64,000 nucleotides of DNA from Octopus vulgaris (Eukaryota). The notes under the pieces were generated by a model. The model saw only the letters and a program-made list of their open reading frames with translations. It searched no databases and was not told where the DNA came from. This document shows, one piece after another, positions 1,857-57,314 of this stretch. The stretch's first letter is position 1. Each line of letters begins with the position of its first letter. The DNA is taken from assembly GCA_951406725.2 (NCBI GenBank), contig OX597815.1, positions 167,586,001 to 167,650,000 of the forward strand, read 5' to 3'. The translations under genes and the position numbers were made by a program.

Positions 1857-1903
<47 letters not shown>

Positions 1904-4053
1904 TTTCAACAATTGAGGGTAAAATTAATTAATTATTAATCAATTTCACCAAGTATTCAGTATGTAAAGGGACCATTTAAGGCGAATTCAAAATATTACA
2001 TTTTATAAAGGGCTTAGTAAAATAAATTACTTTGCCACATACTGAACTCATTAGAAATAGCAGCTAAAAAAATTTTTTTAGCCAAATTCTAATACTTAAA
2101 GAAAATTTCTCTCAGATAGTGCTTACTCAAAATAGCCCACGAAGGTATGGGGGTAAAAACATTAAAAAATCACATATGCAAAGGTTATTTGAGAACGTAC
2201 GTTTCTAGATCAGCCAAATACAATTCGACATTTCTTTCGTCAGCCCAAAATTCCTTAATTCGGATTTGTAAACACTGAAAGTAGGAGCATACCCTTTTGG
2301 TGACTTTTCACCTTCGAAGATCCGTTCAGACTACCAGTGCCAACAAATTCAAAATATGCAAGCGAAGAATTTCTGCCCTCCCCTTTCCACCCACGTGGGC
2401 TAAGTTAGCAAACACCATAATTTTATCGGTGAAAACCGAAGGATTAAACAGAGAGAAATGAATTATAATTTCAACAATTGAGGGTAAAATTAATTAATTA
2501 TTAATCAATTTCACCAAGTATTCAGTATGTAAAGGGACCATTTAAGGCGAATTCAAAATATTACATTTTATAAAGGGCTTAGTAAAATAAATTACTTTGC
2601 CACATACTGAACTCATTAGAAATAGCAGCTAAAAAAATTTTTTTAGCCAAATTCTAATACTTAAAGAAAATTTCTCTCAGATAGTGCTTACTCAAAATAG
2701 CCCACGAAGGTATGGGGGTAAAAACATTAAAAAATCACATATGCAAAGGTTATTTGAGAACGTACGTTTCTAGATCAGCCAAATACAATTCGACATTTCT
2801 TTCGTCAGCCCAAAATTCCTTAATTCGGATTTGTAAACACTGAAAGTAGGAGCATACCCTTTTGGTGACTTTTCACCTTCGAAGATCCGTTCAGACTACC
2901 AGTGCCAACAAATTCAAAATATGCAAGCGAAGAATTTCTGCCCTCCCCTTTCCACCCACGTGGGCTAAGTTAGCAAACACCATAATTTTATCGGTGAAAA
3001 CCGAAGGATTAAACAGAGAGAAATGAATTATAATTTCAACAATTGAGGGTAAAATTAATTAATTATTAATCAATTTCACCAAGTATTCAGTATGTAAAGG
3101 GACCATTTAAGGCGAATTCAAAATATTACATTTTATAAAGGGCTTAGTAAAATAAATTACTTTGCCACATACTGAACTCATTAGAAATAGCAGCTAAAAA
3201 AATTTTTTTAGCCAAATTCTAATACTTAAAGAAAATTTCTCTCAGATAGTGCTTACTCAAAATAGCCCACGAAGGTATGGGGGTAAAAACATTAAAAAAT
3301 CACATATGCAAAGGTTATTTGAGAACGTACGTTTCTAGATCAGCCAAATACAATTCGACATTTCTTTCGTCAGCCCAAAATTCCTTAATTCGGATTTGTA
3401 AACACTGAAAGTAGGAGCATACCCTTTTGGTGACTTTTCACCTTCGAAGATCCGTTCAGACTACCAGTGCCAACAAATTCAAAATATGCAAGCGAAGAGT
3501 TTCTGCCCTCCCCTTTCCACCCACGTGGGCTAAGTTAGCAAACACCATAATTTTATCGGTGAAAACCGAAGGATTAAACAGAGAGAAATGAATTATAATT
3601 TCAACAATTGAGGGTAAAATTAATTAATTATTAATCAATTTCACCAAGTATTCAGTATGTAAAGGGACCATTTAAGGCGAATTCAAAATATTACATTTTA
3701 TAAAGGGCTTAGTAAAATAAATTACTTTGCCACATACTGAACTCATTAGAAATAGCAGCTAAAAAAAATTTTTTAGCCAAATTCTAATACTTAAAGAAAA
3801 TTTCTCTCAGATAGTGCTTACTCAAAATAGCCCACGAAGGTATGGGGGTAAAAACATTAAAAAATCACATATGCAAAGGTTATTTGAGAACGTACGTTTC
3901 TAGATCAGCCAAATACAATTCGACATTTCTTTCGTCAGCCCAAAATTCCTTAATTCGGATTTGTAAACACTGAAAGTAGGAGCATACCCTTTTGGTGACT
4001 TTTCACCTTCGAAGATCCGTTCAGACTACCAGTGCCAACAAATTCAAAATATG
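1904..4053 (-). repeat. 565-bp tandem array, ~3.8 near-identical units, one hammerhead per unit
   Basis: TTTCAAC ends at 1910, 2475, 3040 and 3605 (period 565). Only isolated differences seen (e.g. G at 3499; A/T run in unit 4). Starts immediately after (TA)n. Confidence 0.95.
2188..2249 (-). ncRNA. Type-I hammerhead ribozyme motif (further copies 2753-2814, 3318-3379, 3883-3944)
   Basis: UUUGGG-CUGACGA-A-AGA..UCU-A-GAAA-CGUACG-UU-CUCAAA: canonical core, 6-bp stem I, palindromic stem III ACGUACGU, GUU triplet; position 10.1-11.1 is A.A. Confidence 0.8.
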
Positions 4054-4846
4054 TCGAATTGTATTTGGCTGATCTAGAAACGTACGTTCTCAAATAACCT
4101 TTGCATATGTGATTTTTTAATGTTTTTACCCCCATACCTTCGTGGGCTATTTTGAGTAAGCACTATCTGAGAGAAATTTTCTTTAAGTATTAGAATTTGG
4201 CTAAAAAAATTTTTTTAGCTGCTATTTCTAATGAGTTCAGTATGTGGCAAAGTAATTTATTTTACTAAGCCCTTTATAAAATGTAATATTTTGAATTCGC
4301 CTTAAATGGTCCCTTTACATACTGAATACTTGGTGAAATTGATTAATAATTAATTAATTTTACCCTCAATTGTTGAAATTATAATTCATTTCTCTCTGTT
4401 TAATCCTTCGGTTTTCACCGATAAAATTATGGTGTTTGCTAACTTAGCCCACGTGGGTGGAAAGGGGAGGGCAGAAATTCTTCGCTTGCATATTTTGAAT
4501 TTGTTGGCACTGGTAGTCTGAACGGATCTTCGAAGGTGAAAAGTCACCAAAAGGGTATGCTCCTACTTTCAGTGTTTACAAATCCGAATTAAGGAATTTT
4601 GGGCTGACGAAAGAAATGTCGAATTGTATTTGGCTGATCTAGAAACGTACGTTCTCAAATAACCTTTGCATATGTGATTTTTTAATGTTTTTACCCCATA
4701 CCTTCGTGGGCTATTTTGAGTAAGCACTATCTGAGAGAAATTTTCTTTAAGTATTAGAATTTGGCTAAAAAAATTTTTTTAGCTGCTATTTCTAATGAGT
4801 TCAGTATGTGGCAAAGTAATTTATTTTACTAAGCCCTTTATAAAAT
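4051..4846 (+). repeat. Inverted ~1.4 units of the same 565-bp repeat
   Basis: Reverse complement of 3130-3926 apart from a 1-nt indel and a substitution in the A/T run. ATG microhomology at the junction (4051-4053). Ends in (TA)n. Confidence 0.95.
4598..4659 (+). ncRNA. Type-I hammerhead ribozyme motif in the inverted arm
   Basis: TTTGGG CTGACGA ...TCTA GAAA CGTACG TT CTCAAA read directly on the plus strand; predicted cleavage after 4653. Confidence 0.8.
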
Positions 4847-4929
4847 ATATATATATATATATATATATTCGAAACTACGATTTTACGCACAATACCCCAA
4901 CCACGAGGCCACGCACCCTCATATAGACA

Positions 4930-23954: not shown

Positions 23955-24103
<149 letters not shown>

Positions 24104-24128
24104 CATCATTATTATTATTATTATTATT

Positions 24129-24730
24129 CAGTAGTTTTATTTTTATAGCGTGCTTTCACTTCACTACCGAGCGCAGCTCTGTGTGCCTTGGGTATGTGCT
24201 GTGATGCTCTGATGGTTATTGTATGGAAAGCGTAGGATGTGTGCAGTGCCTAGTAGTGCAATTTTCTGTATGTTATATGTGTTTGTAAGTCCTGGTGTTT
24301 TTGTTATGTATTTGTCTGAATATTTTTTTATCATGCCTAATGCACCTACTATGATAGGAATTGTTTCTGTTTTCAGATTCCACATTCTAGTTACCTCTAT
24401 TTCCAGGTCTTTGTATTTTGAGAGTTTCTCCATTTCTTTTAGAGACACGTTGTCATCTGCCGGTATTGATACATCAATTAGAAAGCATTTTTTTCTTCAT
24501 GATCTCTGACAACTATATCTGGTCTGTTGGCCTTAATTTCTCTATCTGTGTGTATCGGCATATCCCAGAGTATGGTTGCTTTCTCGTTTTCTGTGACCTT
24601 TTCTGGAGTGTGCCTATACCATCTTTTTTCTGTTGTTATTCCATAATGTTGGCATAGCTTCCAATGTATGTAGGTTCCAACTCTGTCATGTCTGTGAATA
24701 TATTCCTTCTTAGCCAGGACTGGGCAGCTA

Positions 24731-24731
<1 letters not shown>
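24129..24731 (-). mobile_element. R4/Dong-like RLE LINE 3' fragment in (TAA)n
   Basis: SCPVLAKKEYIHRHD..W..C; ILWDMPIHTDREIKANRPDIVV; IDVSIP; EKLSKYKDL; PIIVGALG. Embedded in (TAA)n. Confidence 0.92.
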
Positions 24732-24799
<68 letters not shown>

Positions 24800-24802
24800 T
24801 TC

Positions 24803-24884
<82 letters not shown>

Positions 24885-28379: not shown

Positions 28380-28453
<74 letters not shown>

Positions 28454-28514
28454 TAATAATAATGATGATGATGATGATAATAATGGTGATGATGATGATG
28501 ATAATAATAGTAAC

Positions 28515-28554
<40 letters not shown>

Positions 28555-28556
<2 letters not shown>

Positions 28557-29172
28557 TAGCTGCCCAGTCCTGGCTAAGAAGGAATATATTCACAGACATG
28601 ACAGATGTGGAACCTACATACATTGGAAGCTATGCCAACATTATGGAATAACAACAGAAAAAAGATGGTATAGGCACACACCAGAAAAGGTCACAGAAAA
28701 CGAGAAAGCAACCATACTCTGGGATATGCCGATACACACAGACAGAGAAATTAAGGCCAACAGACCAGATATAGTTGTCAGAGACCATGAAGAAAAAAAT
28801 GCTTTCTAATTGATGTATCAATACCGGCTGATGACAACGTGTCTCTAAAAGAAATGGAGAAACTCTCAAAATACAAAAACCTGGAAATAGAGGTAACTAG
28901 AATGTGGAATCTGAAAACAGAAACAATTCCTATCATAGTAGGTGCATTAGGCATGATAAAAAAATATTCAGACAAATACATAACAAAAACACCAGGACTT
29001 ACAAACACATATAACATACAGAAAATTGCACTACTAGGCACTGCACACATCCTACGCAGAACACTTTCCATACAATAACCATCAGAGCATCACAACAAAT
29101 CACAGCACATACCCAAAGCACACAGAGCTGCGCTCGGTAGTGAAGTGAAAGCACGCTATAAAAATAAAACTA

Positions 29173-29175
<3 letters not shown>
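28555..29175 (+). mobile_element. R4/Dong-like RLE LINE 3' fragment in (TAA)n, inverted twin of 24129-24731
   Basis: Same peptides, same 5' start (ACTAGCTGCCCAGTC) and same 3' end (AAATAAAACTACTG then (AAT)n). Confidence 0.92.
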
Positions 29176-29255
<80 letters not shown>

Positions 29256-29339
29256 CAATAATAATAATAATCAATAATGGAGGTGGTGCCTAGCGTGTTC
29301 GTAGTCGAATTACTGAATCCTGGAAAAGAATATATACAC

Positions 29340-39410: not shown

Positions 39411-40107
39411 CTTGACTACCGAGTATGTAACATATTGTATAGATATATATATATATATATACATATATATATTTCATACATAACTCTCCCCCTCCTCATA
39501 ACCCCCTCTCCCCCTCCTCACCTATCCTTTCTCCCCCGACCCCTACTTCTACAGTCCTTCATCCTTTCATATATATCCCCTCCTCCCCTTCCTTCTCCCC
39601 ATCCTCTCCTCTTCCCCTTCTCCTCTCTTCTTCCCCTCGCCTTCTCTCCCCTCTTCTCCCCTCCCCTCTTCTCCTCACTATGACTTTACACATCACATCA
39701 CATATGATGTGCCATACTAATACACACACCAACTAATACATACTAATACGTATAATACATACCAGTATACTAATACTTATATATATATATATACTCTCAC
39801 ACACACACACACACACACCTATATATACGTATAATACATACTAATACATACTAATACATACACCAACCCCATACATACGCACGTATCTTACGCACTATAT
39901 ATATATATATATACATATATATATCCAGACCCTCCCACGCACTAGTTCCCTCAACCCTTTTATCAACCCTATTATCTAATATCTTTGACCTCTGGCATTC
40001 TTATAACTGCAAATAAGAATAAAGCTTGTTTTATTTATATTTCCGAGCTTATTAGTTCTTTGTTTTCCACCTGCCTTCGTCTTTTGTTTATTTTCATAAA
40101 GCTTCCG

Positions 40108-40278: not shown

Positions 40279-40332
<54 letters not shown>

Positions 40333-40335
40333 TTA

Positions 40336-40690
40336 GCATTCTTATAAAAATAAGAATAGGTGTTATCCATATAACCTTCGAACAAGGGAGGTCAGTCGCT
40401 CCACACTACTTGACCGGCAGCTACAGACGCGTTTCGGGGTATTGCCCCTTTTCAATGCAGCGTAGCCAGCCAGTAGGTGTCGCTTCTGACAATCTCTGTT
40501 CGATGGTTTTATTTACCTAGTTTCGGTGGAATACATCCACTTGTAGCTGCCGGTCAAGTAGTGTGGAGCGACTGACCTCCCTTGTTCGAAGGTTATATGG
40601 ATACAGTTTGTGTATCAAATAGCTAACTTAAGGCGATGGCCTCATGGAGCTAATAAGCGGACAGCTTTATTCTTATTTTTATAAGAATGC
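40336..40690. mobile_element. Fold-back pLTR/retrozyme-like insertion
   Basis: Perfect inverted repeat ~40364-40425 / 40542-40603 plus an outer inverted repeat ~40336-40358 / 40668-40690; follows (TA)n. Confidence 0.8.
40420..40461 (-). ncRNA. Type-I hammerhead with compensatory U3:A8 core
   Basis: GCUGCA-UUGAAAA-GGGG-CAAUA-CCCC-GAAA-CGCG-UC-UGUAGC: all three stems present, GUC triplet. Confidence 0.8.
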
Positions 40691-41098
40691 CATATTAGTA
40701 TAGCGATAACTATTATTTTCCGGGAACGCTGCCGCTGTTCTCTTTTAGAGAGACTTAGTAATTTTAATATTTCTATTATATATATATACATATTTATATA
40801 TTTACATCCACGGATACAAACATACTTGTGTGTGTGTGTGTGTGTGTGTACATTACTTGACTGTCTGGTGTTTGTTTGATATCGGTAAAAAGAGTGAAAA
40901 AAATAATACCCGACATATAGTGGGATTGTGTGAGGATGAGGGACCAAAGGAAAATAAATCTGACAACAAACTGAAAAAGAAAAAAAGCACTGAAATAATA
41001 GATATTGATAGAAAAAGAGTAAAAGAAAGGACAGTAAAAACAAAATAAAAAGAGGGAGCAAACTGAAAGAAAAAACGTGAGAGAGAGAGAGAGAGAGA

Positions 41099-56740: not shown

Positions 56741-57314
56741 TTTTTTATATTTGACTCTATTGAATGTATGTCATTATTACATCATACACTTTATGAACTA
56801 TTACATCATACACTTTAAACATAGAGCATGGACTCTCTTTATTATATATAAAAAAAATTTGTTTGATAAGGTTCGTTATTTCAAGAACCGAAACATGTTA
56901 AATTAAAATTTGTCTAATATAGCAGCATTTTCAAACTTCATTTTTTACAAATATATACCCACTCGTATACGAGCTAATTTTATTATAAATATATATATAT
57001 ATATACAAGTACTTATACATATGAGTATACTCACATGCATCTACGAAATCAAAGCAAATTTAATTTTTGTCAATCACACAATTGCGCAAATATACACAAA
57101 GGAAATCTCGGACACAAACAACTGAAATAAATACAGAGAACTCCACAAACAACAGTACACACACAGATATCCATGTCTCGAATTTTCGCACATGCACGAG
57201 CATATAAATACACGGAGATCAAACATACATTCATTCATAGATATTACTTCACTTACATATACGTTTCCTCAGACATACGCATATAGGCATTCGTTTCCAT
57301 ACGCTCATGCCCCC

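Follow-up and report, generated by a model that had tools for sequence, protein, structure and literature searches.

Small non-LTR retrozymes of 170-400 nt have been described from metazoans (Cervera & de la Pena 2020, PMC7229834), and a preprint derives retrozymes from the pseudo-LTRs of Penelope-like elements (PLEs) (Li et al., bioRxiv 10.64898/2026.07.22.740005). According to Cervera & de la Pena 2014 (PMC4209133), Cercyon PLEs account for ~1,300 U3-A8 hammerheads in the single genome of Schistosoma mansoni, and the same account describes the double-hammerhead arrangement for metazoan type I motifs. The covariation of C3-G8 to U3-A8 is reported for several natural hammerheads, which are active in vitro (Perreault et al. 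2011, PMC3088659). PLE insertions are described as partial tandems with an inverted 5'-truncated copy in AT-rich or (TA)n targets (Craig et al. 2021, PMC8557442). The anole element PAc could insert in vitro without being cleaved, and no RNA reads terminating at the cut were seen (Frangieh et al. 2024, PMC11167929). Both the U3:A8 core variant and the class of element considered below are already published.

Herein, we analysed a 64,000-nt stretch of Octopus vulgaris DNA (the window), in which a type I hammerhead, HHR-B, belongs to a repeat unit of 362 nt. Like the metazoan non-LTR retrozymes of PMC7229834, the unit is non-coding, has a GC content below 50%, occurs head to tail, is strongly self-paired as a circle, and carries a canonical type I hammerhead with a weak palindromic stem III; the PLE origin proposed for retrozymes by Li et al. 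(bioRxiv 10.64898/2026.07.22.740005) would be common to both. It departs from the retrozymes described in PMC7229834 in its U3:A8 core and in a second, degenerate hammerhead per unit, and from retrozyme arrays in the inverted two-arm form of the present insertion. The core of HHR-B shows the same covariation as the natural hammerheads of PMC3088659 and the Cercyon hammerheads, which PMC4209133 likewise presents as type I, PLE-linked and dimer-dependent. However, the Cercyon U3-A8 motifs are counted there among the minimal ones, with a stem II of 7-8 bp, a stem I of 4-5 bp and an ill-defined loop 1, whereas HHR-B has the canonical sizes (stem I 6 bp, stem II 4 bp) and loop-contact letters. As in the PLE insertions of PMC8557442 and PMC11167929, an inverted 5'-truncated copy, a (TA)n target and an internal start of reverse transcription are seen, but the unit has no reverse transcriptase (RT) or endonuclease frame, unlike the PLEs of these reports.

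A type I hammerhead with a U3:A8 core

An intact hammerhead had been proposed in a sequence-only reading of this DNA. Its UUGAAAA core, GGGG/CCCC stem, 6-bp stem I, ACGCGU palindrome and GUC were all found, and they lie on the minus strand, which that reading had not named (Table 1). Read from 40461 to 40420, stem I is GCUGCA/UGUAGC, 6 bp including one G.U pair (40458/40423). The core letters U3 U4 G5 A6 A7 A8 A9 run from 40455 to 40449, followed by stem II (GGGG at 40448-45, CCCC at 40439-36) with the loop CAAUA, by G12 A13 A14 (40435-33), and by the palindrome ACGCGU (40432-27), which precedes C17 (40426). The core features of a type I hammerhead are all present: a Watson-Crick 3-8 pair, U4 G5 A6, A9, G12 A13 A14, A15.1-U16.1 and H17. 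U3:A8 substitutes for C3:G8 with the 3-8 pair preserved, and each of the two changes, C to U and G to A, is an ordinary transition.

The loop and bulge letters were matched by eye to the Rfam Hammerhead_HH9 consensus. HHR-B has the canonical type I loop-contact letters, namely the UAC bulge, the U 3' of stem I, and C...A in loop II, which is 5 nt long versus 6 in the HH9 consensus. Because these letters agree with the consensus, the architecture is predicted to be canonical (tertiary-stabilised) and not minimal; PMC6155905 offers general support for loop-loop contacts in hammerheads. With a stem II of 4 bp and no extra base between positions 9 and 10.1, HHR-B also lies outside the definition of the minimal PLE hammerhead.

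Table 1. Features of the locus, in window coordinates.
Feature	Position	Strand	Remark
Type I hammerhead HHR-B (stem I 6 bp, stem II 4 bp, palindromic stem III, C17)	40420..40461	-	
Core UUGAAAA	40449..40455	-	U3 = 40455, A8 = 40450
Predicted cut, 3' of GUC (C17 = 40426)	40425..40426	-	Core consensus
Extended stem I (UAC bulge 40464-62, single U 40419, distal 8-bp helix)	40411..40472	-	Pair probabilities
Degenerate hammerhead-like motif HHR-A (5-bp hairpin, GAAA, short stem III)	40505..40544	-	
Arm B: unit 244-362, uncut hammerhead, 1-62, 5-letter replacement, ~127-149	40336..40544	-	
Arm A: unit 1-238, inverted relative to arm B	40542..40779	+	5' end 0-3 nt from predicted cut
3-nt overlap TGT, common to arms A and B at the inversion junction	40542..40544		
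Perfect 62-bp inverted repeat	40364-40425 / 40542-40603		Product of inversion
Outer 23-bp inverted repeat	40336-40358 / 40668-40690		
(TA)n left flank	40281..40328		7 nt from arm B end
(TA)n right flank	40778..40788		Overlaps last arm A letters

The fold of HHR-B exceeds chance. With a descriptor that accepted a C3:G8 or U3:A8 core, a stem II of at least 4 bp and a stem I of at least 5 bp, HHR-B was the sole match in the 64-kb window, and none of 100 locally dinucleotide-shuffled windows matched. A loose core pattern yielded 120 prokaryotic loci by chance, which served solely as a null, and both stems were present in none of them. In viral contigs, the fixed hammerhead pattern gave no match and a looser one gave three, all without stem I. 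The 42-mer alone reached a z of -1.86 (9/200 shuffles equally good) and the 66-mer a z of -3.59 (1/200). In the monomer, stems I and II had pair probabilities of at least 0.94 and stem III of 0.0. When two 42-mers were co-folded without constraint, the minimum free energy structure was a double hammerhead (-31.9 versus 2 x -12.9 kcal/mol) with a stem III of 6 bp. Rfam gave no match in the window at the gathering score and, at E<=10 around HHR-B, four weak unrelated matches with no hammerhead among them; we infer that the core swap is responsible for this miss.

The second motif, HHR-A, has a poor stem I. In sister copies it too has a UUGAAAA core upstream, of which five letters are missing here. 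Intramolecular pairing of HHR-A with HHR-B was considered and dismissed, as inspection by eye showed no complementarity between their stem III sequences.

A nearly invariant family of 362-nt units

Twenty-four runs were listed, and in 20 of them 63% or more of the sampled words are found (12 studies, nine organism labels). The material was contigs throughout, and no run is recorded as RNA; one run (X11) is RNA by the tool's guess, and one was judged to be DNA. Seven runs were aligned to the window, and a letter was listed as a variant when it reached at least 2%. Three deep runs held 1073, 733 and 357 contigs matching the unit, respectively.

Whether the sister cores would all read CTGANGA had been set beforehand as the test. 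They do not: none of the seven runs lists another letter at position 3 or 8, and U3:A8 is therefore the norm of the family and not the decay of a single copy. Across 40449-55 and 40426-35, no alternative letter was listed in 7/7 runs at the 2% threshold, and U3:A8 appears, from these alignments, to be the state of the family's founder. The sequence-only reading had gone further and taken the compensatory change as a mark of selected catalysis rather than decay. Its second half holds, the change being a family trait, and a working ribozyme would agree with the loop and bulge letters, the double-hammerhead co-fold and the arm start at the cut; the first half does not follow, since almost no variation exists anywhere in the family. 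With 13 variable places among 206, the probability of finding no variant in the 14 core places is 0.39, and conservation of the core was rejected as proof of selection. Its description of U3:A8 as a rare functional variant likewise stands in part: the pair is natural and active in vitro elsewhere, but it is less rare than supposed, having been published for Penelope-like elements, and the window contains another core of the U3:A8 type (56863), with a broken stem I. At the locus as a whole, that reading recognised the motif and missed the element that carries it.

Pairing survives both changes listed within the 42-mer (G.U becomes A-U at 40458, and G-C becomes G.U at 40438). Five changes are listed in distal stem I: pairing is kept at 40413 and 40417 and broken at 40414 and 40469, while the change at 40466 preserves it solely if linked to that at 40417. 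Outside the arm B deletion, the window copy has two listed differences from the family majority (40487 and 40702), and this small number suggests a young insertion at this locus. The family is likely high-copy, because of the number of contigs and because the unit was assembled even in a 5-Mb run (X5); summed contig depth, ~1e6 in X1, is not equal to copy number. A near-identical unit (window 40336-40760) occurs under nine organism labels, in some runs with just 5-6 Mb of contigs, and may reflect close relatives, contamination or transfer.

In the putative RNA run X11, 15 of the 17 places not private to the window were A>G or T>C, nine of them within one contig, whereas the deep runs showed mostly C>T and G>A. 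The X11 changes resemble A-to-I editing of double-stranded RNA, which hints at expression of the family. A binomial test on them was set aside, since the places are not independent.

The joints between contigs gave the order of the unit: plus strand 40542-40772, a 12-nt bridge, minus strand 40544 to 40426, and back to the start, 362 nt in total. Seven letters of the bridge are at 40773-79 and five are missing from the window; it carries the second UUGAAAA core, ahead of HHR-A. The joint 40426/40542 was present in 4/4 runs and the joint 40544/40772 in 2/4; the cycle was closed in two of the four (X17 and X5), and the ends of one 392-nt contig overlap by 30 nt, which gives the same 362-nt cycle. 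The run judged to be DNA has both joints, and the head-to-tail form therefore exists as DNA. The unit is non-coding, with a GC content of 0.41. Folded as a circle with the five missing positions set to N, it reached -115.7 kcal/mol against -81.7 +/- 6.1 for shuffles (z -5.5; 0/60 equally good), with 64% of positions paired and stems I and II retained.

No open reading frame of at least 100 aa was found within 40336-40640. Among the 145 of 464 window frames scanned with Pfam, which were the least repetitive ones, there was no RT match; four weak matches fell below the cut-off and no host gene was recognised. Within this scope, neither the arrangement that defines an autonomous PLE, an RT plus GIY-YIG frame between pseudo-LTRs, nor an autonomous PLE with sequence in common with the unit was found. 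A metagenome search returned one locus (L001) with a C3:G8 hammerhead and the same GGGG/CCCC and ACGCGU. It has a PLE-like RT frame at 1-1017, which matched just under the Pfam cut-off (28.6 versus 29.6) and ends without a C-terminal endonuclease, and ~720 nt later a canonical type I hammerhead at 1734-1776, which scored 23.9 bits against Rfam HH9 (gathering 52). L001 is an analogue from another source, not the partner of the 362-nt unit.

In the literature covered, figures, supplements and most subscription texts aside, we found no U3:A8 core in a canonical retrozyme hammerhead, so one may be in print; no description of the 362-nt family was found either. The family adds a natural, predicted U3:A8 ribozyme, likely high-copy, with the full canonical architecture, and one that Rfam did not flag here.

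The inverted insertion and its explanations

The window is non-coding, microsatellite-rich and ~35% GC. Within arm B, the five letters at 40359-40363 stand for 64 nt of the unit, which sister contigs keep. The inverted repeats in Table 1 arise because a permuted unit is inverted. No target-site duplication is visible, both flanks being (TA)n. The locus has one complete hammerhead, where an active retrozyme copy is defined by at least two consecutive ones.

After twin priming, the two internal ends are expected to lie close together. Arm A ends at unit position 238 and arm B starts at 244, 5 nt apart, as predicted by twin priming (a model cited in PMC2246262). The 5' end of arm A is the first base past the predicted cut, give or take the three shared letters, and is preceded by a T in place of the unit's C17. 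A start within this 4-nt window of 362 has an a priori chance of ~1%, a figure taken post hoc from a single locus. Against a start set by cleavage, arm B passes through the uncut hammerhead site, and among the 18 rows listed of 83, no loose end lay at the cut. Contig depth showed no step there, contigs being unable to reveal ends. The start of arm A at the predicted cut is a hint that the RNA probably self-cleaves in vivo. This start also sets the locus apart from anole PAc, which used uncut RNA in vitro (PMC11167929).

According to the above results, we favour, with a probability of about 0.72, the reading that HHR-B is a U3:A8 type I hammerhead, predicted to cleave itself as a dimer, and the ribozyme of a 362-nt repeat that is likely a non-autonomous, retrozyme-type passenger of PLEs. 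What is observed is the fold, the presence of U3:A8 throughout the family, the head-to-tail arrangement of the 362-nt unit and the two-arm inversion in (TA)n; the following course would connect these findings. Head-to-tail copies of the unit would be transcribed; two hammerheads would pair via their ACGCGU palindromes and cut after GUC, releasing 362-nt monomers, possibly circularised; and a PLE reverse transcriptase acting in trans would copy the RNA into (TA)n. At this locus, the first cDNA would have started near unit position 149 and run back through the uncut site to 244, the second would have extended from 238 to the cut end at position 1-4, and the two would have been joined across three shared letters in a manner like twin priming. 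We regard it as possible, though short of an even chance, that in vivo cleavage has left its record in the genome at this locus, with cut RNA copied by twin priming and the inverted arms of the family beginning at the cut. If true, hammerhead cutting would be tied to PLE-type insertion, which was not seen in the sole in vitro system, and CUGANGA scans would overlook whole high-copy retrozyme families. The family thereby bears on whether the RNA ends copied by PLE machinery are set by hammerhead cleavage. The arm starting at the predicted cut is a single lead that merits a genome-wide count: an accumulation of 5' ends there among the copies would amount to evidence that cleavage occurs in vivo.

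The repeat could also be mobilised by PLEs while its hammerhead is a slow or silent passenger that the founder handed down; copying would then proceed from uncut RNA, and the arm would start at the cut by chance. We consider this, the main rival, unlikely, although several observations agree with it: the family is probably young, is uniform and has passed no selection test, arm B traverses the uncut site, and HHR-A looks dead and is equally invariant. Weak in vitro cutting by metazoan PLE hammerheads is in keeping with it, as are the insertion of unprocessed RNA by the anole PLE in vitro (PMC11167929) and the spread of Naiads without canonical hammerheads, as described in PMC8557442. What speaks for the preferred self-cleaving ribozyme instead is the complete canonical architecture of HHR-B, down to its loop and bulge letters, together with the circular fold (z -5.5) and the post hoc ~1% position of the arm A start at this one locus.

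It seems to us improbable that the sequence derives from an autonomous PLE as a truncated pseudo-LTR, with a collapsed partial tandem giving the mere appearance of a 362-nt cycle. PLE insertions do make partial tandems and inverted 5'-truncated copies (PMC8557442), L001 has such a hammerhead behind an RT frame, and an acceptor-like tract and an ATG occur near unit position 149. But the ATG frame stops after three codons, the hammerhead is predicted to be canonical and not minimal, the X17 and X5 contigs close the cycle and never exit to coding sequence, and the loose ends in X14 and X11 stay on it. These contigs also bear on the least credible of the explanations, a satellite or MITE-like DNA repeat spreading at the DNA level, whose terminal inverted repeats (TIRs) would be genuine. 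The outer 23-bp inverted repeat fits such an element, and retrozymes may amplify as tandem arrays according to the preprint of Li et al. (bioRxiv 10.64898/2026.07.22.740005). However, the sister contigs are head to tail, indicating no two-arm layout, and no target duplication is visible in the (TA)n; the MITE form was rejected because the sister contigs are not TIR-bounded.

Related ends and other repeats in the window

In a few cases copy ends could be placed, near unit 149-151 (the locus and a related end) and at 177 (X11 contigs), which corresponds to window 40690-40718; the two lie ~28 nt apart, resembling the optional 'tail' of PLEs. The related 3' end, at 39993-40030 on the minus strand, has ~30 nt in common with the unit near position 149 and a splice-acceptor-like tract ending in CAG that is not in the unit. 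It possibly represents a sister family.

A repeat of 565 bp at 1899-4854, flanked by (TA)n tracts, probably forms a second family of the retrozyme type. It comprises 3.8 copies on the minus strand and 1.4 in inverted orientation, at 99% identity. A hammerhead-like motif with a C3:G8 core recurs in every unit (five copies); its stem I has 6 bp, its stem II is long and irregular, its palindrome measures 8 nt, and its fold z is only 0.18. The repeat has the same inverted layout as the 362-nt locus, but no arm starts at the predicted cut (4051 versus 4088, the plus arm starting 37 nt before it), which counts against reading the arm A start as a trace of cleavage.

Two further motifs were noted. 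At 56855-56905 (plus strand), a second core of the U3:A8 type, UUGAUAA, is accompanied by a 5-bp stem II, the palindrome ACAUGU and a broken stem I; it is likely a decayed motif from another family. At 59790-59715 (minus strand), a C3:G8 core has a 5-bp stem II, what may be a stem III of 5 bp, and a stem I of 6 bp that is displaced; its hammerhead-like nature is uncertain. The window also contains an inverted pair of 870 bp with 92% identity (24027-24879 / 28408-29278) and several other dispersed repeat families of 200-400 bp.
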